From: Escherichia coli
GTDB taxonomy: Bacteria; Pseudomonadota; Gammaproteobacteria; Enterobacterales; Enterobacteriaceae
Length of the DNA stretch: 64,000 nt
Reading direction: 5' to 3' (one strand)
Assembly (NCBI RefSeq): GCF_016903815.1
Contig: NZ_CP069973.1
Below, one piece after another: positions 6,903 through 55,424 of the stretch; position 1 is the first letter of the stretch; every line of letters begins with the position of its first letter. Below the pieces are notes generated by a model. It was given only the letters and a program-made list of their open reading frames with translations. It made no database searches and was not told the DNA's origin. Made by a program: the position numbers and the translations under genes.

Positions 6903-7236
6903 TGGTTTATTCCCGCTGGTGCGGGGAACTCATCAGTGATATCCAACATTGCGGAGCTAAACGCGGTTTATCCCCGCTGGCGCGGGGAACTCTAATATCC
7001 CTGGCGATAATCAACCGGCTTACTCGGTTTATCCCCGCTGGCGCGGGGAACTCGAGAGCGAGGGGAGATTCCGGCAGGGCGTGCACGGTTTATCCCCGCT
7101 GGCGCGGGGAACTCGCGGGTATGCTCCGCTCCGTGTTCGACAAACTCGGTTTATCCCCGCTGGCGCGGGGAACTCAAGGTCGCGGGGACGCCACGGGCAG
7201 TCAATGTCGGTTTATCCCCGCTGGCGCGGGGAACTC
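6903..7236 (-). CRISPR. Type I-E CRISPR array, 6 repeats and 5 spacers, transcribed on the minus strand
   Basis: 29-bp repeats at 6903-6931 (3 mismatches, leader-distal), 6964-6992, 7025-7053, 7086-7114, 7147-7175, 7208-7236; five 32-bp spacers at 6932-6963, 6993-7024, 7054-7085, 7115-7146, 7176-7207. Confidence 0.95.
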
Positions 7237-8246: not shown

Positions 8247-8539
8247 AGCATTCTCTGTGAAGTGGATAATTGTTAATTATTGCAGATCCTGCCACAACAA
8301 TCATGTCTTATTAACATTCTGTTACAGGCAGGTTTAAAGAAAAATGAGAAACAGATCGTTAATAATAAAAGGGAGTAACGTATTATGTCAGAAATAAATA
8401 AAGTAAAGGGATTTAATCATGTCAAAAACATTCACCAAAATTATACTTATTTTTTCTGTGTTCGTTTTTAATTATAACGAATCTCAAATTACCGATGCCG
8501 CCGTCAATTTATTTATCCAGCTTTAATGGGACATTTATA

Positions 8540-12721: not shown

Positions 12722-13513
12722 TTAGAGATCAATTTCCTGCCGTTTTACCTGTTGCCAGACTTCTTCCATTGTTTCGAGGTCAACACCTGTCATTTCCAGT
12801 CCACGCGCGGCAACAATACGCTCCACTTCGCGAAAACGACGCTCGAATTTTTCGTTCGCTTTTTGCAATGCGATTTCCGCTTTTGTCCCTAAATGACGAG
12901 CCAGATTGACCGTGGCAAACAGCAGGTCGCCCATTTCCTCCTCCAGTTTAGCCTGGTCGATAACAGCCTGCCGTGCCTCGTACATCACCTCGTCGATCTC
13001 TTCGTAGACTTTATCGACTACCGGACCAAGCGTCGTCCAGTCAAAACCAACGTTGGCGCAACGTTTCTGGATTTTTTGCGCACGCATTAAAGCCGGTAAA
13101 CTACGAGGAATATCGTCCAGCGCCGAATGCTGCGCTTTCTGCGCGCGCTCTTCGGTTTTGATTTGCTCCCAACGGGCAAGCACTTCACTACTGTTTTCGG
13201 CAGAACTGTCAGCAAAAACATGCGGATGGCGACGTTCTAATTTATCGCTGATCGCGGCGCATATATCATTAAAGTCAAAGCGCCCTTCTTCCTGAGCCAT
13301 TTGTGCGTAAAACACCACCTGGAACAGCAGATCGCCCAGTTCACCGCGAAGATCGTCAAAATCTTCACGGGCGATGGCGTCCAGCACCTCGTAGGTTTCT
13401 TCAAGGGTGTAAGGCGCAATGGTGGCAAATGTCTGCTCTTTATCCCACGGGCAGCCGTTTTCCGGATCGCGCAGGCGCTGCATGATGGTGAGCAAACGGT
13501 CGATTTGATTCAT
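12722..13513 (-). CDS. mazG: nucleoside triphosphate pyrophosphohydrolase
   Basis: 263-aa ORF; synteny directly downstream of mazEF. Confidence 0.9.
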   Translation of the reverse strand: MNQIDRLLTIMQRLRDPENGCPWDKEQTFATIAPYTLEETYEVLDAIAREDFDDLRGELGDLLFQVVFYAQMAQEEGRFDFNDICAAISDKLERRHPHVFADSSAENSSEVLARWEQIKTEERAQKAQHSALDDIPRSLPALMRAQKIQKRCANVGFDWTTLGPVVDKVYEEIDEVMYEARQAVIDQAKLEEEMGDLLFATVNLARHLGTKAEIALQKANEKFERRFREVERIVAARGLEMTGVDLETMEEVWQQVKRQEIDL

Positions 13514-13584
13514 TAGAATGTCCTGAAAATTGCGGGTCCGTCAGGTGGAAACCTGTGACCAGAATAGAAGTGAGTTAGTAACAC

Positions 13585-13920
13585 CTACCCAATCAGCACG
13601 TTAATTTTGGCTTTAATGAGCTGTAATTCCTCTGGGGCAACCGTTCCTTTCTTCGTTGCTCCTCTTGCCCGCCAGGCGATACTTTTTACCTGATCAGCTA
13701 ACGCTACGCCATCACGTTCCTGACCGGATAAAACAACTTCGAACGGATATCCTTTTGATTGCGTTGTACAAGGAACACACAGACACATACCTGTTTTGTT
13801 GTTGTACATGAACGGACTCAGGACAACAGCCGGACGATGTCCGGCTTGCTCGCTACCTTTTGTCGGGTCAAAATCAACCCAAATCAGATCGCCCATATCG
13901 GGTACGTATCGGCTTACCAT
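13585..13920 (-). CDS. mazF: MazF endoribonuclease toxin
   Basis: 111-aa [39 protein letters not shown]... Confidence 0.95.
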   Translation of the reverse strand: MVSRYVPDMGDLIWVDFDPTKGSEQAGHRPAVVLSPFMYNNKTGMCLCVPCTTQSKGYPFEVVLSGQERDGVALADQVKSIAWRARGATKKGTVAPEELQLIKAKINVLIG

Positions 13921-14168
13921 TACCAGACTTCCTTATCTTTCGGCTCTCCCCAGTCGATATTCTCGTGGAGGTTTTCCGGCGTGATGTCGTTGACCAGTTC
14001 AGCAAGCGTAAATACGGGCTCTTTACGCACTGGCTCAATAATTAATTTGCCATCCACCAGGTCAATCTTCACTTCATCATCAATATTCAGATTGAGCGCC
14101 TGCATTAACGTAGCCGGGATCCGCACCGCCGGTGAATTTCCCCAACGCTTTACGCTACTGTGGATCAT
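13920..14168 (-). CDS. mazE: MazE antitoxin
   Basis: 82-aa [30 protein letters not shown]...; overlaps the mazF start by 1 nt. Confidence 0.95.
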
Positions 14169-14194
14169 AACCCTTTCCTCAAACCGCTATCATA

Positions 14195-14231
14195 TGTAGA
14201 TACAGTATATATCAATCTACATTGTAGATAC
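14195..14231 (-). promoter_or_regulatory. mazEF promoter-operator region (alternating palindrome)
   Basis: tgtagata (14195-14202), atctaca (14215-14221), tgtagata (14224-14231) immediately upstream of the mazE start. Confidence 0.6.
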
Positions 14232-14245
14232 GAGCTAATTTCGGC

Positions 14246-16480
14246 CTAACTCCCGTGCAACCGACGCGCGTCGATAACGTCTGGCACCTGATTGAGTTTA
14301 CCCAGCACGCGGCCCAGCACTTGCAGATTGTAAATCTCAATGGTCATGTCGATAGTCGCCAGTTGCTGTTTAGTGTCGCTACGGCTGGCAACGCCAAGCA
14401 CGTTCACCTTCTCGTTGGCAAGAATGGTCGTGATATCACGCAATAATCCACTGCGATCATTGGCCATCACCCGGACCACCAGCGAATATCCGGCGGAGTA
14501 GCTCTCACCCCATACCGCGTCAACAATGCGTTCTGGCGCATGGGAGCGCAGTTCCGCCAGTTGTTCGCAATCGGCGCGGTGTACTGAAATACCGCGTCCC
14601 TGGGTAATGAAGCCGACAATCTCATCTCCAGGAATCGGCTGACAGCAGCGCGCGATGTGGTGCATCAGGTTGCCGACACCTTCTACCACCACACGACCGT
14701 TATCTTTACTGCGGTTTTGCGGCGTATAGCTTTTTTGCTGAAGTTGCTTCAGCGCGGCGGCATCCTGCTCTTCGGCACTCGGCTTATTAAATTGCGATTG
14801 CAGGAAGTTCACCATCTGATTGAGACGGATATCCCCGCCACCAATTGCCGCCAGCAACTCGTCGACATCATTGAAGTTGTAACGCGGCAGCAGATGTTTT
14901 TCTGCTTCTTTCAGGCTGATCCCCAGATGTTCCAGCTCGTCGTCAAGGATTTGCCGCCCAGCCAGAATGTTTTTGTCACGGTCCTGTTTACGGAACCAGG
15001 CGTGAATTTTCGAACGCCCACGGCTGGTTGTGACGTAACCGAGGTTTGGGTTTAACCAGTCACGGCTGGGGTTCGGCTGTTTCTGGGTGATAATTTCAAT
15101 CTGGTCGCCCATCTGCAGCTGGTAGGTGAACGGCACAATGCGCCCGCCAATTTTTGCCCCGATGCAGCGGTGTCCGACATCACTGTGGATGTGGTAAGCG
15201 AAGTCCAGCGGTGTTGATCCCGCAGGCAAATCAACGACGTCACCTTTCGGCGTAAAGACGTACACCCGGTCGTCAAAGACCTGGCTGCGTACTTCGTCGA
15301 GCATTTCGCCGGAATCAGCCATCTCTTCCTGCCACGCAATCAGTTTACGCAGCCAGGCAATTCGGTCTTCATGTCCCGAACGTGCGCCGCCAGCTGCCGC
15401 GCCTTCTTTATATTTCCAGTGCGCAGCAACACCCAACTCTGCATCTTCATGCATCTGTTTGGTGCGGATTTGGATCTCTACGGTTTTGCCACCTGGTCCC
15501 AGAACCACGGTATGAATAGACTGATAACCGTTTGGTTTCGGGTTAGCGACGTAATCGTCAAACTCATCCGGCAGGTGGCGATAGTGAGTGTGCACTATCC
15601 CCAGTGCGGCATAACAATCCTGTAAACGCTCGGCGACAATACGTACCGCACGCACATCAAACAGCTCATCGAAGGCGAGGTTCTTTTTCTGCATTTTGCG
15701 CCAGATGCTGTAGATGTGTTTCGGACGACCATACACTTCAGCTTTAACGCCTTCAGCTTTCATCTCAGCGCGCAGATGACCGACAAACTCTTCGATATAG
15801 TGTTCGCGGTCGAGACGGCGTTCATGCAACAGTTTTGCGATGCGTTTGTATTCGGTCGGGTGGAGATAACGGAAGCAGTAATCTTCCAGCTCCCATTTCA
15901 GTTGTCCAATCCCAAGACGGTTCGCCAACGGCGCGTAGATATTGGTGCACTCTTTTGCCGCCAGTACGCGTTCATCTTCCGGCGCGTCTTTTACTTCGCG
16001 CAGATGAGCAATACGCTCTGCCAGTTTAATGACCACGCAGCGAAAATCATCGACCATCGCCAATAACATCCGGCGAACGTTATCGACCTGTTCGGAGGAA
16101 ACAGAATCGGTATGCGTCGCTTTCAGCTGGCGGATCGCCGCCATATCACGCACGCCGTGAATAAGGTTAACGACCGACTTACCGACGCACTCACGCAGCA
16201 CATCTTCGCTGACTACGTTGGCATCCGCCAGAGGGAACAGCAGCGCCGCCCGCAGCGTGTCAATGTCCATACTTAATGTCGAGAGGATCTCCACCATCTC
16301 AACACCACGCCACAATAACAGACTGGCATCCGGATGTCCCTGCGTCTGTTGCAGACAATACGCCCAGGTTTCGGCTAAGCACTCACACGACTTCTGGCTG
16401 GTAATACCCAGACTTGCGATCCATTTTTCCGGATCAAATTCACCAGCCTTATTGATATGTGCACTTCTTACCGCAACCAT
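14246..16480 (-). CDS. relA: GTP pyrophosphokinase, (p)ppGpp synthetase I
   Basis: 744-aa ORF; synteny. Confidence 0.95.
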   Translation of the reverse strand: MVAVRSAHINKAGEFDPEKWIASLGITSQKSCECLAETWAYCLQQTQGHPDASLLLWRGVEMVEILSTLSMDIDTLRAALLFPLADANVVSEDVLRECVGKSVVNLIHGVRDMAAIRQLKATHTDSVSSEQVDNVRRMLLAMVDDFRCVVIKLAERIAHLREVKDAPEDERVLAAKECTNIYAPLANRLGIGQLKWELEDYCFRYLHPTEYKRIAKLLHERRLDREHYIEEFVGHLRAEMKAEGVKAEVYGRPKHIYSIWRKMQKKNLAFDELFDVRAVRIVAERLQDCYAALGIVHTHYRHLPDEFDDYVANPKPNGYQSIHTVVLGPGGKTVEIQIRTKQMHEDAELGVAAHWKYKEGAAAGGARSGHEDRIAWLRKLIAWQEEMADSGEMLDEVRSQVFDDRVYVFTPKGDVVDLPAGSTPLDFAYHIHSDVGHRCIGAKIGGRIVPFTYQLQMGDQIEIITQKQPNPSRDWLNPNLGYVTTSRGRSKIHAWFRKQDRDKNILAGRQILDDELEHLGISLKEAEKHLLPRYNFNDVDELLAAIGGGDIRLNQMVNFLQSQFNKPSAEEQDAAALKQLQQKSYTPQNRSKDNGRVVVEGVGNLMHHIARCCQPIPGDEIVGFITQGRGISVHRADCEQLAELRSHAPERIVDAVWGESYSAGYSLVVRVMANDRSGLLRDITTILANEKVNVLGVASRSDTKQQLATIDMTIEIYNLQVLGRVLGKLNQVPDVIDARRLHGS

Positions 16481-26941: not shown

Positions 26942-26984
26942 AAAGCAACCTCAATAAGAAAAACTGCCGCGAAGGATAGCAGGA

Positions 26985-27352
26985 ATAAAAAAAGGGAGCA
27001 CTGTATTCACAGTGCTCCCGGTTCGTTTCGCAGCATTCCAGCTACTTTTGTTGCTCCCTGCTCATCCTTGACAACTTTTCCTCTGGCCTTGCGGCCAATC
27101 GTTCATCCTGAACTATTGCTTCCTGCTCACACCACCCCGATGTGATACTTCATCCTGAAGTGTCCCTGGCCTTCCTGACCCACCGAATCATCCTGACCGG
27201 TTCTCATTCTCCATCCTGGAGGTGTCCTTTAACGCGTCCTGCGTCATCCTCTTCGCTTCATCCAGAAGCCTTTCCCTGAAACACCATCCTGGTGTGTCCT
27301 TCAGAAGTGTCATCATCCTGATGTTCACTTCGTTGTCTGACTCCCTGTCGAC
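26985..27352 (-). ncRNA. csrB: CsrB sRNA (CsrA-sequestering, many GGA motifs)
   Basis: Minus strand starts GTCGACAGGGAGTCAGACAACGAAG (RC of 27328-27352), carries about 18 CAGGA(U)G-type repeats (seen as catcctg on plus) and ends in hairpin GGGAGCACTGTGAATACAGTGCTCCC plus U-run near 26985. Confidence 0.93.
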
Positions 27353-36516: not shown

Positions 36517-36648
36517 TTCTATTCTCCAGATACAGTTTCAGCTCGCCTTGTTGCGTAAAACAGCACCGCAAATGAAGACGGGGTTATTTTTAGTAAGGGG
36601 AGGCCACTGAATATCATTGTTCAGTAGCCTGATATCTTTTGGCGATTA

Positions 36649-37647
36649 TTATTTTTTTCTTATGCGCTTAATTAATTTCATTCCTACTTTAACTGTTTTT
36701 TTGACTGGTCTTTCTTCGATCGCGCTTAACATCATTTCGAACGCTTTTTCTGCCCAGGCATTTTCATCCTGCTGCATTGACCAGACATTGTTGGCGAGAA
36801 ATCCCAGCATAGGATGTTCATCGAAAGTGCCAATATTGATTTCTGGCGGTACAGCGCCAAGACGGTCGCGAATCGCGCGGACAGCGCCTTCAAGCACAGG
36901 CAAAGACGAGGCGATAAATGCCTGCGGACATCCCTGCTCTTCAATGAGTTTTTCCATAATGACATAGCCGCCTTCCGGAGTATTTACCGGACCTTCCCGC
37001 ACCCAATCGCGATGGGTAATCCCTTTTTTTGCCAACGCATTCAAATAACCTGTCAGACGATCGCTGATACTCGGCAAACCGGCATCTCCCAGCAAAAACC
37101 ATACTGGAGCCTGCCCGGCCTCAAGAATATTTTGCGTCAGCTTTTCTCCGCCAGAAATATTATTACTCTCTACCAATGCGTTATCGGTATATTTAAAATC
37201 ACGATCGAGTAAAACCATGGGCTTACGAATTTTGCGTAAATGATGCTGCTGATTTTCCAGCGTCGAAGGAACAATAAAAAGACCATCTACATTTCGTGCG
37301 ATAAATGCTTTCGTCAATTTATTTTCATAGTCAACATCATCATAAGTGCAACTGATTGTAAGTTGATATCCGGAACGTCGACAGCGTTGTTCGAGTTTTT
37401 CTGCCAGCGTAGCAAAAAAGACGTTGGATATGTTGGGAACAATCAACCCTAATGTATCAGTTTTGTTAAGCTTAAGGCTGCGAGCGGAATGATTAATGAT
37501 ATAACCATAGCGTTCAACATATTCATTGATACGCGTTTGGGTTTTGACGCTGATTCGATATTGTTCCGCTTTTCCATTTAGCACCAGTCGCACGGTCGTA
37601 ACCGATAAATTCAGGTCGCTGGCTATCTGCTCTACTGTTTTAGCCAT
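36649..37647 (-). CDS. LacI/GalR-family transcriptional regulator
   Basis: 332-aa ORF with N-terminal HTH (MAKTVEQIASDLNLSVTTVRLVLNG...) and periplasmic-binding-like effector domain. Confidence 0.85.
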   Translation of the reverse strand: MAKTVEQIASDLNLSVTTVRLVLNGKAEQYRISVKTQTRINEYVERYGYIINHSARSLKLNKTDTLGLIVPNISNVFFATLAEKLEQRCRRSGYQLTISCTYDDVDYENKLTKAFIARNVDGLFIVPSTLENQQHHLRKIRKPMVLLDRDFKYTDNALVESNNISGGEKLTQNILEAGQAPVWFLLGDAGLPSISDRLTGYLNALAKKGITHRDWVREGPVNTPEGGYVIMEKLIEEQGCPQAFIASSLPVLEGAVRAIRDRLGAVPPEINIGTFDEHPMLGFLANNVWSMQQDENAWAEKAFEMMLSAIEERPVKKTVKVGMKLIKRIRKK

Positions 37648-37711
37648 AGGTATTTCCCAGTTAACATCCAGACGTCAAATCACAATCATAAAAGTATTTT
37701 CAACTTTTGTC

Positions 37712-39292
37712 TTATTGCATCAGTTGGTTAACCGCCTGTTGTTGCTCCCAAAGCGTCAGGTAAACCCGGTATTTACGCTCTAAAAATTCACGGCGTTGTG
37801 GATTTACCTGAATAATCTCTCCGGCTTCAACCATTGCTTTACACGCAGATGTAAAATCCCCCCATGCTCCGCTGGCAACAGCGCCGCTAATTGCTGCGCC
37901 CAACGTAACGGCATCTTCTTCTTGCATCAGGTGGATATCGCAACCTGTCACGTCTGCATATTCGCGTAGCCATAAAGGGTTGTGCGTTGCACCACCACAT
38001 AATGTTAATCGGGTAATGGTATGCCCATTTTCCCGCAGAGTTTCAATAATATGTCTGGTGCCAAAGGCTATTGCCTGTAAAGTCGCAAGATAAAGTCGCG
38101 CGAGCTGATTTTCACCACGCTCCAGTGTTAAGCCATAAACACTGCCTCTGGCATCGGGCCGCGCTCGTGGCGAACGGTTGCCGTGATGATCGGCAAGCAC
38201 ATGTAAATTTCGTGTGGGTTCTGACTCGTTAGCTTCAAGGGCTGCTACCCATTCATTAATCAGTTGAATCGGATGACATCCGCGTTGCTGCGCCTTGTGA
38301 AAAAGATTTGCGCTTGCCCCTGACTCCTGAAGCGTCCACTCCACCAGCGCCCCTGCGGCGCTTTGCCCGCCTTCGGTTAGCCAGTAATTTGGCAACATGG
38401 CCGACCAGTATGGCCCCCAGACGCCAGGGGTGAATATCTCTTTTTCACTACACAGCATATGGCAGTTCGACGTTCCGCTTATCAATGCCAGCGTTCCTAA
38501 TGGGTGAGCGCCAGCCAGCGCCACGCCACCGGCATGGGCATCAATCAAGCCACTGGCCACGATAACATTAGTCGTTAATCCTAACTCTTCAGCAGCTGTG
38601 GCGGTTAACGTTCCCACGGCAGCGCCAGGCGGAAGAATGTCGGCAGGAATTCTTTCAAGCATATCGGTCAGGTCTATCGATTCCAGTAAGCTATGGCTAA
38701 AGCGTTGCTCATGAGCTAGATAATTCCATTTACACGTTAGCGTGCATAATCCCGCGACGTCTCGCCCTGTTGCTTTCCAGACCAGAAAATCCGCCAGATC
38801 GAAAAAGCGATGAGCGGCCTGCCAGGTTTGCGGTAGATGCGTCTTCAACCAACGTAACTTTGGTAACTCCATCTCGACGCTCACTTCGCCGCCAACGTAG
38901 CGCAATGCGGGATCCTTCATTGCGTTAATCTGCGCCGTCTCGACAGTTGCACGATGATCCATCCACATAATAATGTCGTGATTCGCAGATCCACCGGACG
39001 AAACCGCTAAACCCTGGCCTTGTTCATCAAGAACAACCAGCGAGCAGGTAGCGTCAAAACCCAGTGAGCGAATTGCGGAAATGGGGATGCCTGCCAAAGC
39101 TGTCGCCTCTTTCACCGTTTTACAAACTTGTTGCCAGATCTCTGCCGAAGACTGTTCGACACGCTCGCCGCCAGGGCGAAACTGGGAGACGGGCGCAGTA
39201 GCGAATGCCAGCCTGTGGCCACTGGCACTGTAAACGCCTGCCCTGACACTGGCCGATCCGACATCGACACCGAGAAAATAACCGTTGTGCAT
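37712..39292 (-). CDS. FGGY-family pentulose-type kinase (candidate D-ribulokinase)
   Basis: ORF 37712..39412; start set at MHNGYFLGVDVGSASVRAGVY with AGGGAGG RBS (527 aa); DHHGNRSP motif typical of the ribulokinase/pentulose-kinase branch. Confidence 0.8.
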   Translation of the reverse strand: MHNGYFLGVDVGSASVRAGVYSASGHRLAFATAPVSQFRPGGERVEQSSAEIWQQVCKTVKEATALAGIPISAIRSLGFDATCSLVVLDEQGQGLAVSSGGSANHDIIMWMDHRATVETAQINAMKDPALRYVGGEVSVEMELPKLRWLKTHLPQTWQAAHRFFDLADFLVWKATGRDVAGLCTLTCKWNYLAHEQRFSHSLLESIDLTDMLERIPADILPPGAAVGTLTATAAEELGLTTNVIVASGLIDAHAGGVALAGAHPLGTLALISGTSNCHMLCSEKEIFTPGVWGPYWSAMLPNYWLTEGGQSAAGALVEWTLQESGASANLFHKAQQRGCHPIQLINEWVAALEANESEPTRNLHVLADHHGNRSPRARPDARGSVYGLTLERGENQLARLYLATLQAIAFGTRHIIETLRENGHTITRLTLCGGATHNPLWLREYADVTGCDIHLMQEEDAVTLGAAISGAVASGAWGDFTSACKAMVEAGEIIQVNPQRREFLERKYRVYLTLWEQQQAVNQLMQ

Positions 39293-39344
39293 AAAGCCTC
39301 CCTGACGCTGGAGATAACGGGGATGAAAATTCATCCCCAATTTT

Positions 39345-40295
39345 TTATTTCTTACCGAATGGGTGCAGGAGTTTGTCGATTTCTGGCGTGTTAATATTCT
39401 CGGCATTAACAAATTTCACGGGAATATCGATCTCTTTTTCAACGGCTTGCCCCGAAAGGGCCGCGTTCAACGTTTTGATCCCTTGATAGCCAATCTGGTA
39501 TGCATCCTGAACAACAAAGCCCTGAATGACGCCGTTCTTCAGGAAGTTAATAATCGCTTCCGTACTATCAAAACCAATGACCTTCACCTTACCTTTCAGA
39601 TTCTGGCTATCAATGGCATTCGCCACCCCGAGCGTTGAACCTTCATTGGTGCCATAGATCCCAGCAAGATCGGGATTGGCCTGAATCATATCGATAGTTT
39701 TATCCATCGCTTTTTGCGGGTCACCATCGCTGTACTGAACGGGTAAGACTTTAATGTCAGGATATTTTTCTTTCATACGCTCCATGAAGCCTTCCGAGCG
39801 TTCAATAGCGGAAGATGTTCCTGCAACGTGCGCGATAATCCCAACTTTCCCTTTATTATTTACCTGCGAGGCTAAGGCATCAGCTGCCTGAGCACCTGCT
39901 TTACGGTTATTGGTGGCGACAAAACTCACCGGAATGTCTGAATTGATGCCTGAATCAAAGGTCACCACTTTGATACCGCGTGAATTTGCCGTTTCTACCA
40001 GTGGGGCGAGCGCATTCGCGTCGAGGGCTGCCAGAAGCAAGCCATTCGGTTTCTGCGCCATCGCATTTTCGACTAACTGAATTTGCTCGGCTATTTGCGT
40101 TTCATCAGCCGGGCCAACATAGCTGGTTTTATCCCCCAACTCTTTAGCCGCAGCTTCAGTCCCCATTTTTACGGTTTGCCAGAATTCATGTTGGAAACCT
40201 TTACTAACAACCGGAAGATTTAAATCCTTCGCCAGTGCGCTGGAACTTACGCAAGCCAGCAGAGATAACGCATAGATAAAATGCCTGGTTTTCAT
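39345..40295 (-). CDS. periplasmic sugar-binding protein (RbsB-like) of the ABC transporter
   Basis: ORF 39345..40418; start set at MKTRHFIYALSLLACVSSSALA (signal peptide) giving 316 aa. Confidence 0.8.
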   Translation of the reverse strand: MKTRHFIYALSLLACVSSSALAKDLNLPVVSKGFQHEFWQTVKMGTEAAAKELGDKTSYVGPADETQIAEQIQLVENAMAQKPNGLLLAALDANALAPLVETANSRGIKVVTFDSGINSDIPVSFVATNNRKAGAQAADALASQVNNKGKVGIIAHVAGTSSAIERSEGFMERMKEKYPDIKVLPVQYSDGDPQKAMDKTIDMIQANPDLAGIYGTNEGSTLGVANAIDSQNLKGKVKVIGFDSTEAIINFLKNGVIQGFVVQDAYQIGYQGIKTLNAALSGQAVEKEIDIPVKFVNAENINTPEIDKLLHPFGKK

Positions 40296-40368
40296 TGTTG
40301 TACTCCGTTCTGAGTGAATCACCCTTAACGTCAGGGCAGTTGTTTCCCGATAAAACAGGGAGCCTAAG

Positions 40369-41352
40369 TCAACGAATCTTTTTGCGTAATGTATCGAGGT
40401 AAACGGCAGCGACCACAACGACGCCCATCGCGACCATTTGCCAGAACTGGGAGACGCCCATTAAATTGAGGCCATTTTTCAGTACACTCATAATGAAAGC
40501 GCCAATGATTGTGCCGCCAATAGTGCCAATACCGCCCATTAAGCTGGTTCCGCCAATCACTACCGCGGCAATAGCTTCCAGTTCATAACCCACACCTACC
40601 GTCGGTTGTCCGGAGTTGAGACGAGATGCCAGAATGACACCTGCAATCCCCGTTAATAATCCACAGAAGGCATAGACGAAAATTTTCACGCGCTGAACTT
40701 TAATACCAGAAAGATGAGCAGCAACTTCATTACTGCCTACGGCATAGACATAGCGACCAATGACGGTTTTCTTCAGGATGTAAGCGCCGACAAGCGCTAC
40801 AATGACAAGGTAGAAAACAGGATAAGGCAGCACATCAAATAAGCGTCCCTGAGCGAGCGTTTTGAACATCGGGTAATCGGCAAAATAGATGGCGCGCCCG
40901 TCGGTCATCACCATATTGATACCTCTGACGGACATCATCAGGCCCAAGGTAGCGATAAATGGTGGAATGGTCATTTTAGTGACCAACAAACCATTCACAT
41001 AGCCGCACATTCCACCGGCTAAAACACCGGCAATAATACACACTGGCAGCGGCAGGCCCAGTGTGGCGCAAATCCCCACGGCGACACCAGAAAAAGCCAC
41101 CACGGAGCCCAATGAAAGATCGATGCCCGCGGTAATAATGACGAAAGTTACCCCAATGGCCATAATGCCGATAACCGACGTTTGCAGAGCAATCGTCATG
41201 ATATTTTCGGTATTAAAGAAAAAGGGAGAGCTGAAACTAAAAAACAGCACTAATATAATTAAGCTAAAAAGAGGCGCAAGGCGCATCAAAAGTTCTTTAT
41301 TTATCTTTATTTTCTTATTATTACTGTCTGGAGAGGTTACAGAGATAGTCAT
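40369..41352 (-). CDS. sugar ABC transporter permease (RbsC-like)
   Basis: 327-aa hydrophobic ORF with multiple TM segments. Confidence 0.8.
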   Translation of the reverse strand: MTISVTSPDSNNKKIKINKELLMRLAPLFSLIILVLFFSFSSPFFFNTENIMTIALQTSVIGIMAIGVTFVIITAGIDLSLGSVVAFSGVAVGICATLGLPLPVCIIAGVLAGGMCGYVNGLLVTKMTIPPFIATLGLMMSVRGINMVMTDGRAIYFADYPMFKTLAQGRLFDVLPYPVFYLVIVALVGAYILKKTVIGRYVYAVGSNEVAAHLSGIKVQRVKIFVYAFCGLLTGIAGVILASRLNSGQPTVGVGYELEAIAAVVIGGTSLMGGIGTIGGTIIGAFIMSVLKNGLNLMGVSQFWQMVAMGVVVVAAVYLDTLRKKIR

Positions 41353-41355
41353 AAT

Positions 41356-42870
41356 TTAATCCTCTAACGTCGCGTATTGCATAATTTTTTCTTGTGTCGC
41401 TTCTTTTGCGCTAAGTTCGCCGGTAATTCGACCACTGCGCATCACTAAAATACGGTCGCACATTCCTAACACCTCAGGCAATTCAGAGGAGATCATGATG
41501 ATTGATTTCCCTTTTGCCACCAGGCGATTCATTAACTCATAGATTTCCAGTTTGGCGCCAACATCAATGCCGCGAGTGGGTTCATCGAAGATTAAAATAT
41601 CAGTATCTTTACACACCCAACGTGCAATTATAATTTTCTGCTGGTTTCCTCCACTTAGATTTAATGCCGCCTGTTCAAGATTTGGCGTTTTAATCCTTAA
41701 CGCTTTTACCTGTTCCTCACTGGTTTGTTGGCAACGACGCGAATCGACATTCCCAAAACGATCGGAATATTCAGGGTAGTTTCCTAACATAATATTTCGT
41801 TCAACAGATAAATTCAGCGCCAGCCCTTCTTTTTTGCGGTCTTCCGTCAGGTAACTAATTCCCTGCTGAATAGCATCCGAAATATCTTTAATAACGGTTT
41901 CCTTACCATTTAATTTTAGCGTTCCGCTGTCAATAGAATCCGCACCAAAAATCGCACGCGCAAGTTCAGTACGCCCCGCGCCCATCAGTCCGGCAAAGCC
42001 GAGGATCTCGCCACGATAAAGCGTAAAATTAATATCGTTCAGGACGCCTTTGCGCGTCAGTCCGTTTACCTCCAGAACCGGAATCCGCTGCTGCAAGGCC
42101 TCGCGGCGGGGATAGATATTCCCTAAATCGCGACCAACCATCATGGCAATCAGATCGCTGATTTTTACGCACTCATAATCCACCGTGCTGATGTACTGAC
42201 CATCACGCATTACAGTCGCACGGTCGGCAATTAGCGCCAACTCTTCCAGACGGTGGGAGATATAAACAATGCCGGTCCCCTGCTCTTTCAATAACCGGGT
42301 GACGCGAAATAAGCTTTCAATTTCAGTTTCTGTTAACGCCGCAGTAGGTTCATCCATAATGAGAATCCTGGCGTTAACTGAAATGGCCTTGGCAATTTCT
42401 ACCATCTGCTGCTGAGCTACCGTAAGGTCGGCAACCAGAGTATCTGGTTTGATCGCCAAATTTAATTTTTGCAAAATTTCAATCGTCGCCTGGCGTTGCT
42501 GTTTTTCATCCAGACGCCAGCGATTTTTTTTACAAAACTCCCTGCCGATAAAAATATTTTCTTCTACTGTAAGCTCGGGAAATAAATTAAATTCCTGGTG
42601 AATAATAGTAATACCTACGTTTTGCGCACTTAACGGATCAGAAAATGAGACTGGTTTATCTTCAAAAATTATTTCGCCTTCATCAGGTTGATAAACCCCC
42701 GACAAAATTTTCATTAAGGTAGATTTTCCTGCACCATTTTCACCTAATAATGCATGAACCTCGCCCCGGCGTAGGGAAAATTGCACGTCATTAAGCGCCA
42801 ACACTCCAGGAAAGCGTTTGGTGATATGCTTCATTTGCAAAAATGTTTCGGACATTGCAGCTTTCCTCAA
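41356..42870 (-). CDS. sugar ABC transporter ATP-binding protein with two NBDs (RbsA/CUT2-like)
   Basis: 504-aa ORF with Walker A GENGAGKST, second P-loop GLMGAGRTE and signature LSGGNQQK. Confidence 0.85.
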   Translation of the reverse strand: MRKAAMSETFLQMKHITKRFPGVLALNDVQFSLRRGEVHALLGENGAGKSTLMKILSGVYQPDEGEIIFEDKPVSFSDPLSAQNVGITIIHQEFNLFPELTVEENIFIGREFCKKNRWRLDEKQQRQATIEILQKLNLAIKPDTLVADLTVAQQQMVEIAKAISVNARILIMDEPTAALTETEIESLFRVTRLLKEQGTGIVYISHRLEELALIADRATVMRDGQYISTVDYECVKISDLIAMMVGRDLGNIYPRREALQQRIPVLEVNGLTRKGVLNDINFTLYRGEILGFAGLMGAGRTELARAIFGADSIDSGTLKLNGKETVIKDISDAIQQGISYLTEDRKKEGLALNLSVERNIMLGNYPEYSDRFGNVDSRRCQQTSEEQVKALRIKTPNLEQAALNLSGGNQQKIIIARWVCKDTDILIFDEPTRGIDVGAKLEIYELMNRLVAKGKSIIMISSELPEVLGMCDRILVMRSGRITGELSAKEATQEKIMQYATLED

Positions 42871-42987
42871 TAATCAGAAACTGAAAATGTGAAGTACGGC
42901 ATAAACGTCGCTACTAAAGCCATCTCCACTGTGATACGAATAACCTTTGAATAAATATTCATCGCATCAATCTATTCTTCGCATTTT

Positions 42988-50436: not shown

Positions 50437-50642
50437 ACTTCCTGAGCCGGAACGAAAAGTTTTATCGGAATGCGTGTTCTGGTGAACTTTTGGCTTACGG
50501 TTGTGATGTTGTGTTGTTGTGTTTGCAATTGGTCTGCGATTCAGACCATGGTAGCAAAGCTACCTTTTTTCACTTCCTGTACATTTACCCTGTCTGTCCA
50601 TAGTGATTAATGTAGCACCGCCTAATTGCGGTGCTTTTTTTT
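50437..50642 (+). ncRNA. gcvB: GcvB sRNA
   Basis: Starts ACTTCCTGAGCCGGAACGAAAAG, contains the G/U-rich region GTTGTGATGTTGTGTTGTTGTGTTTG and ends in hairpin GCACCGCCTAATTGCGGTGC plus U-run; divergent from gcvA. Confidence 0.9.
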
Positions 50643-53635: not shown

Positions 53636-53735
53636 TGCCTGATGCGCTACGCTTATCAGGCCTACATAACTCCTGCAATATTTTGGATTTGCATGATTTG
53701 TAGGCCGGATAAGGCGTTCACGCCGCATCCGGCAT
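53636..53735. repeat. BIME: two REP units in opposite orientation
   Basis: gcctgatgcgctacgcttatcaggcctac and aggccggataaggcgttcacgccgcatccggcatg; flanked by near-identical direct repeats gaggttatccctcaccct / gaggttacccctcaccct. Confidence 0.75.
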
Positions 53736-55127: not shown

Positions 55128-55204
<77 letters not shown>

Positions 55205-55237
55205 ATTAAAATTTGATGAAGTAAAGCAGTACGGTGA

Positions 55238-55314
<77 letters not shown>

Positions 55315-55347
55315 ATCAAATTTGATGAAGTAAAAGCAGTACGGTGA

Positions 55348-55424
<77 letters not shown>

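Follow-up and report, generated by a model that had tools for sequence, protein, structure and literature searches.

The closest known system to the locus analysed here is mazEF of E. coli K-12 MG1655 (b2783/b2782, chpAI/chpAK). Marianovsky et al. (2001), as reviewed in PMC4803016, described two promoters for it, P2 and P3, spaced 13 nt from each other; MazE represses both, and MazE-MazF does so more strongly. In the account given by the review, the promoter region holds a palindrome in which the part in the middle, 'a', is complementary to 'b' downstream of it and also to 'c' upstream, and a Fis site is located further upstream (PMC4803016). Zorzini et al. (2015) reported three sites for MazE dimers, bound with micromolar affinity that is raised by MazF (PMC4333400). 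The MazE residues W9, N11 and R16 are named as contacting the operator (PMC4803016). In E. coli MazF, R29 is reported to serve as general acid/base and T52 to have a stabilising role (PMC8887465); the standard inactive mutant is E24A (PMC5888573). The gene mazG is reported to be co-transcribed with mazEF (PMC4803016). An antisense RNA, aMEF, was reported by Van Gundy et al. (2022) to raise mazEF transcript and protein independently of RNase III, and its promoter to be poorly conserved (PMC8887465).

E. coli chpBIK (ChpS/ChpB) and the plasmid R100/R1 system PemIK / Kis-Kid resemble mazEF in having a toxin of the PemK/MazF fold, an AbrB-type antitoxin and two genes with the antitoxin first. They are only distant paralogues of mazEF.

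Identity of the locus and its products

The window is the whole stretch of DNA analysed, 64,000 nt in length. All of its bases (64,000 of 64,000) are identical to the chromosome of E. coli strain 7/2 (NZ_CP023820.1, 3187464-3251463), whose RefSeq record names relA, mazE, mazF and mazG at matching coordinates. Strain 7/2 is a human faecal isolate from Sweden. The four genes lie on one strand with relA directly upstream and mazG directly downstream of mazEF (Table 1), and the order relA-mazE-mazF-mazG is annotated alike in strain 7/2, K-12, O157:H7 and others in RefSeq. The placement of mazEF between relA and mazG, proposed in an earlier note made from the sequence alone, is thus borne out by both the NCBIfam equivalog models and the annotation of the identical genome. 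The spacer between relA and mazE measures 77 bp. The mazE stop codon TAA (13922-13920) and the mazF start codon ATG (13920-13918) have one base in common, and the minus strand reads TAATG at the junction, as expected from the 1-nt overlap the note had described. This overlap suggests that translation of mazE and mazF is coupled. The locus has the make-up of a type II toxin-antitoxin operon: two small co-oriented genes that overlap, the antitoxin gene leading, with an inverted-repeat operator (14194-14230) in front.

Table 1. Coordinates of the mazEF locus, its operator and associated features in the window, with the replacement spacer of the mazEF-free allele.
Feature	Position	Strand	Basis
mazG, nucleoside triphosphate pyrophosphohydrolase	12722-13513	-	263-aa ORF; Pfam MazG, NCBIfam NF007113/TIGR00444
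mazEF indel cassette, 691 bp	13555-14245		flank alignment to strain FCI1
mazF, ACA-specific endoribonuclease toxin (predicted), 111 aa	13585-13920	-	ORF; PDB identity; Pfam; NCBIfam
aMEF (ameF, b4844) equivalent (putative)	13880-14279	+	K-12 RefSeq annotation mapped by alignment
mazE/mazF junction, TAATG	13918-13922	-	direct sequence reading
mazE, antitoxin and autorepressor (predicted), 82 aa	13920-14168	-	ORF; PDB identity; Pfam; NCBIfam
mazEF operator/promoter region ('cab', three MazE-dimer sites)	14184-14234	-	match to Zorzini oligonucleotide
Downstream repeat arm, TATCTACAT on coding strand	14194-14202	-	repeat search and shuffles
Site 'a' of Zorzini et al., TTGATATATACTGT, contains ATATAT	14202-14215	-	14/14 match to oligonucleotide (PMC4333400)
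Middle repeat arm, ATGTAGAT on coding strand	14215-14222	-	inverted pairs I1 and I2
Upstream repeat arm, TATCTACA on coding strand	14223-14230	-	repeat search and shuffles
relA, GTP diphosphokinase	14246-16480	-	744-aa ORF; NCBIfam NF008124, 1676 bits
Spacer of mazEF-free allele	locus L002, 4043-4095; also locus L011		

Both proteins are the K-12 proteins. The product of mazF is identical over 111 of 111 residues to the E. coli MazF of PDB entries 3NFC and 5CK9; it matches Pfam PF02452 (PemK_toxin) with 84.8 bits (cut-off 23.1) and the NCBIfam equivalog NF007386 with 227.4 bits (cut-off 120), the latter covering residues 1-111 of 111. MazE is identical over 82 of 82 residues to the protein in PDB 1MVF and 1UB4 chain C, with scores of 52.9 bits against Pfam PF04014 (MazE_antitoxin; cut-off 24.7) and 196.2 bits against NCBIfam NF007312 (cut-off 113). 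A member of the AbrB/MazE/SpoVT fold, it consists of an N-terminal AbrB/MazE DNA-binding domain and a disordered C-terminal tail that binds MazF, and W9, N11 and R16 are retained. The note had proposed a check of the catalytic residues of MazF; E24, R29 and T52 are all kept. Given its 100% identity to the characterised K-12 enzyme, the MazF encoded here would be expected to be an active endoribonuclease. The paralogous assignments fit far less well: the ChpB and ChpS models reach 55 bits (cut-off 129) and 35 bits (cut-off 101), both well below threshold, and Kid matches MazF with E = 7.6e-9.

The note regarded both reading frames as intact, at 82 and 111 codons for amino acids, and named a hidden frameshift or inactivating substitution as what could overturn this. 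Alignment to K-12 MazE and MazF revealed neither; both frames are intact and the proteins are 100% identical. Alleles of the kind that a degraded or inactive remnant would carry do occur elsewhere in the species. The mazF of strain RM9088 is annotated as frameshifted, the one such annotation among six loci inspected, and the missense changes M9T, G27R and C51Y are found in other strains, with G27R and C51Y close to the catalytic residues R29 and T52. MazE and MazF of the window are, residue for residue, the wild-type K-12 proteins with solved structures, and none of the six nucleotide differences in mazF changes an amino acid, which refutes a subtly inactivated locus at the level of sequence and leaves it a vanishingly small probability.

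On the strength of protein identity, equivalog scores and an operator equal to that of K-12, the identification as the known chromosomal mazEF type II module holds, and the locus is almost certainly the canonical E. coli chromosomal mazEF toxin-antitoxin operon in its K-12 form. Nothing in the sequence speaks against this identification, and the finding itself is already known. Sequence identity, gene order, repeats and population distribution were read directly from the genomes, and what we say of activity and regulation follows from identity to K-12.

Other features of the window were recorded alongside the locus. Between fucA and fucI, where K-12 has fucP, a five-gene block at 36600-42900 (-) encodes a LacI-family regulator, an FGGY kinase and a sugar ABC transporter (binding protein, permease and ATPase); among 5,426 complete E. 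coli genomes only 381 have this block, an E. coli B derivative being one of them. A short CRISPR array lies between ygcE and queE at 6903-7236 (+); its repeats recur every 61 bp and their consensus contains CGGTTTATCCCCGCTGGCGCGGGGAAC. We take the array to be type I-E-like, and no cas genes are annotated beside it in the window. Just upstream of ygcG, a small CDS at 8385-8526 (+) is annotated as a frameshifted pseudogene in the identical RefSeq record. Rfam matches at gathering level were located at 26984-27343 (-), 50437-50642 (+), 53658-53700 (-) and 55128-55421 (+), the elements being the CsrB, GcvB and ES036/CssrF sRNAs and three tandem tRNA genes annotated as tRNA-Met in the same record. 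These sRNA and tRNA matches are expected for this chromosomal region.

The operator and its alternating palindrome

The relA-mazE spacer contains three related repeats. The octamer TGTAGATA is found at 14195-14202 and 14223-14230 and the complement ATCTACA at 14215-14221; a repeat search returned the direct repeat TGTAGATAC in two copies. Two perfect inverted pairs result (14194-14201 with 14215-14222, and 14215-14221 with 14223-14229) and the middle arm is common to both, complementing the upstream arm across a 1-nt spacer and the downstream arm across a 13-nt spacer. The three repeats correspond to the alternating palindrome described by Marianovsky et al., which the earlier note had recognised upstream of mazE. 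We found the repeats at the coordinates given here and the operator equal to that of K-12, with 0 differences in the alignment over 13844-14235.

The match extends to the DNA used in binding studies. The minus strand from 14234 to 14184 agrees at 50 of 51 positions with the 51-nt 'cab' oligonucleotide of Zorzini et al. 2015 (PMC4333400). The sole mismatch is the last base, where K-12 agrees with the window. The 'c', 'a' and 'b' oligonucleotides of that study are contiguous segments, and their 'a' falls between the middle and downstream repeats (PMC4333400). This site 'a' was reported as the MazE site of highest affinity and as the basis of the NMR/SAXS model (PMC4333400). From the reports on K-12 (PMC4333400, PMC4803016), binding by MazE and MazE-MazF at this operator, repression of P2 and P3 and activation by Fis from further upstream would be expected here too. 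A promoter consensus scan gave only two weak sigma-70-like matches, at chance frequency, neither usable for placing P2 or P3.

Repeats of this size could in principle be a chance product of AT-rich intergenic DNA, or belong to a cruciform-forming element instead of an operator bound by protein. The octamer by itself is unremarkable, with at least two copies in 24 of 100 shuffles of the window, and many palindrome mutations are reported in a review to have left MazE-MazF binding unaffected (PMC4803016). The arrangement is a different matter. Three of the six TGTAGAT heptamers of the 64-kb window lie inside 35 bp of operator, and the window holds the composite ATCTACA-N-TGTAGAT-N-ATCTACA a single time, while none of 100 shuffles contains it. 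Eight diverse genomes show no variation in the repeat arms (14194-14230), and the stretch equals a fragment reported to bind MazE by ITC, EMSA and NMR (PMC4333400). A hairpin or cruciform was considered and is unsupported, because the operator fold, as single-strand DNA, is no more stable than shuffled controls (MFE -4.5 kcal/mol, z = -0.63). Chance or a cruciform thus accounts for the repeats with negligible probability, and we treat the stretch as the mazEF operator, to which protein would bind as double-stranded DNA.

Departures from K-12 and predicted regulation

Positions in K-12 were mapped to the window by alignment (offset 11328). MazE and MazF, mazE DNA (0 of 249 nt differ), operator and gene order are identical to those of K-12, and mazF differs at 6 of 336 nt, all silent. 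The flanking genes are about 3% diverged: mazG differs at 22 of 792 nt with one substitution, V185I, and relA at 70 of 2235 nt with S98C and V672M. Outside the coding regions, one extra nucleotide is inserted at 13584, directly after the mazF stop codon, and a single substitution is located at 14236, upstream of the operator. The RNA fold of the mazF-mazG spacer showed no significant structure (z = -0.72).

One of the silent changes, at 13642, destroys an ACA in mazF (nt 277-279 of the gene). By our count the window has two ACA sites in mazE and eight in mazF, compared with two and nine in K-12; the computed K-12 numbers agree with those reported in PMC5888573.

The K-12 RefSeq annotation places the antisense ncRNA aMEF (ameF, b4844) at 2911051-2911450. 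Mapped onto the window (Table 1), this interval overlaps the 5' end of mazF, the whole of mazE, the operator and the final 34 nt at the 3' end of relA, and differs from K-12 by two substitutions (14236 and 14279). Sequence homologous to the K-12 ameF interval is therefore present on the opposite strand, as a putative aMEF. Of the six silent changes in mazF, three (13813, 13831 and 13843) lie within the 75-bp fragment that Van Gundy et al. took as the aMEF promoter. The loss of an ACA from mazF together with these three changes could make fine regulation slightly unlike that of K-12. The earlier note had made no mention of aMEF. Rfam returned no family match in the 12.7-16.5 kb interval. An ORF of 146 codons with a TTG start (13759-14199, +) lies opposite mazF and mazE in antisense orientation, for the most part within the aMEF interval; it has no supporting annotation and was treated as a mechanical ORF and not as a gene.

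Drawing each step from the K-12 literature, the operon may be expected to work as follows. Transcription of mazE and mazF would start from P2 and P3 in the relA-mazE spacer, with translation of the two probably coupled through the TAATG overlap. The MazF dimer would act as an endoribonuclease cutting single-stranded RNA at ACA, with Arg29 as general acid/base and Thr52 stabilising. Through its disordered C-terminal tails, one MazE dimer would bridge and neutralise two MazF dimers. With its N-terminal domain MazE would bind three adjacent operator sites, and MazF would strengthen this binding, giving autorepression. Proteolysis of the labile MazE, as reported, would free MazF, which may then also cut its own mRNA. 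The putative aMEF would raise mazEF expression, as reported for its K-12 counterpart, and mazG would be co-transcribed with mazEF.

Distribution, divergence and role of the cassette in E. coli

A search of 5,426 complete E. coli genomes recovered the mazEF coding DNA at full length in 4,415, always chromosomal and essentially single-copy. Only three genomes have less than 80% query coverage, and about 1,000 lack mazEF wholly. Segments of relA and mazG of equal length are present in 5,425 of the 5,426 genomes; the roughly 1,000 without mazEF therefore lack the cassette outright. Seven plasmid matches, at 60-80% identity, are distant paralogues.

The mazEF-free allele is found in phylogroup B2 (UTI89, ST131, FCI1). 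In FCI1, a urine isolate, and in an O25b:H4-ST131 strain the gap between relA and mazG is 95 bp, and in strains such as UTI89 the two genes are reported to form an undisturbed bicistronic operon (PMC7167474). Alignment with FCI1 shows common sequence stopping at 13554 of the window and resuming at 14246. The flanking genes and junction sequences are shared with the window; in place of the 691-bp cassette there is an unrelated spacer of about 53 bp that carries the inverted repeat GCTGGATA...TATCCAGC.

The earlier note had remarked in passing that toxin-antitoxin loci are often degraded between strains. This does not describe mazEF, which is either full-length (4,415 genomes) or absent (about 1,000), with three partial copies. 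It is a known presence/absence polymorphism, not a commonly degraded locus, and as it is whole or absent and rarely degraded, intactness is therefore its expected state. In the frameshifted mazF of RM9088, a crow isolate (locus L010), a 1-nt deletion falls in a four-T run at the equivalent of window position 13858, and RefSeq records a pseudogene. The deletion could reflect true loss of function or an error in assembling the homopolymer.

Where present, the cassette has diverged little. Over about 4,400 genomes, mazEF has a median identity of 99.0% to the window (the lowest among the matches listed being 98.5%), compared with 95.9% for a neighbouring 584-bp segment of relA and 97.1% for a mazG segment of that length. 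We also calculated diversity in eight genomes with mazEF picked across its identity range. At third codon positions it is 0.017 in mazE, 0.031 in mazF, and 0.051 in both relA and mazG, so that among these eight genomes mazEF, above all mazE, is about 2-3 times less diverse than its neighbours. First- and second-position diversity in the eight genomes is 0.006 in mazF and about 0.001 elsewhere, and MazF is relatively richer in amino-acid variants, those in other strains being the M9T, G27R and C51Y noted above. As a tentative explanation, the cassette may have been spread or homogenised by recombination later than its flanks, or the silent sites of mazE may be constrained by aMEF and ACA content.

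What chromosomal mazEF does for the cell is disputed, with programmed death, reversible stasis, phage exclusion and no host function all proposed (PMC7167474). The last of these would make mazEF a biochemically intact but selfish addiction cassette in the relA-mazG spacer, kept because its loss is costly; this concerns biological role and not the identity of the genes. Consistent with it, about 1,000 of the 5,426 genomes do without mazEF, with relA and mazG 95 bp apart, and relA-mazG is reported as an undisturbed operon in UTI89-like strains (PMC7167474). Deleting five toxin-antitoxin systems including mazEF was reported to cause no fitness defect under several stresses (PMC7167474). PADLOC defence models gave no match to MazE, MazF or MazG, and for MazE and MazF this also fits a selfish element. 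Against it, the cassette is almost never degraded where present, with 4,415 full-length copies to three at less than 80% of the query. Low non-synonymous diversity in mazE likewise indicates purifying selection, though addiction alone could yield that. Reported effects on phage P1 infection and the ADP-ribosylation of MazF by T4 Alt suggest a part in defence (PMC7167474, PMC4803016). Overall, we regard a purely selfish cassette as possible but rather unlikely.

The present result matters little. The presence/absence pattern of mazEF across E. coli is already in the literature; the pattern gives useful context in that an intact mazEF is the norm wherever the cassette exists. In the strain studied here, MazE, MazF and the operator are present as the wild-type K-12 alleles, and results obtained with mazEF of K-12 are therefore transferable to it.
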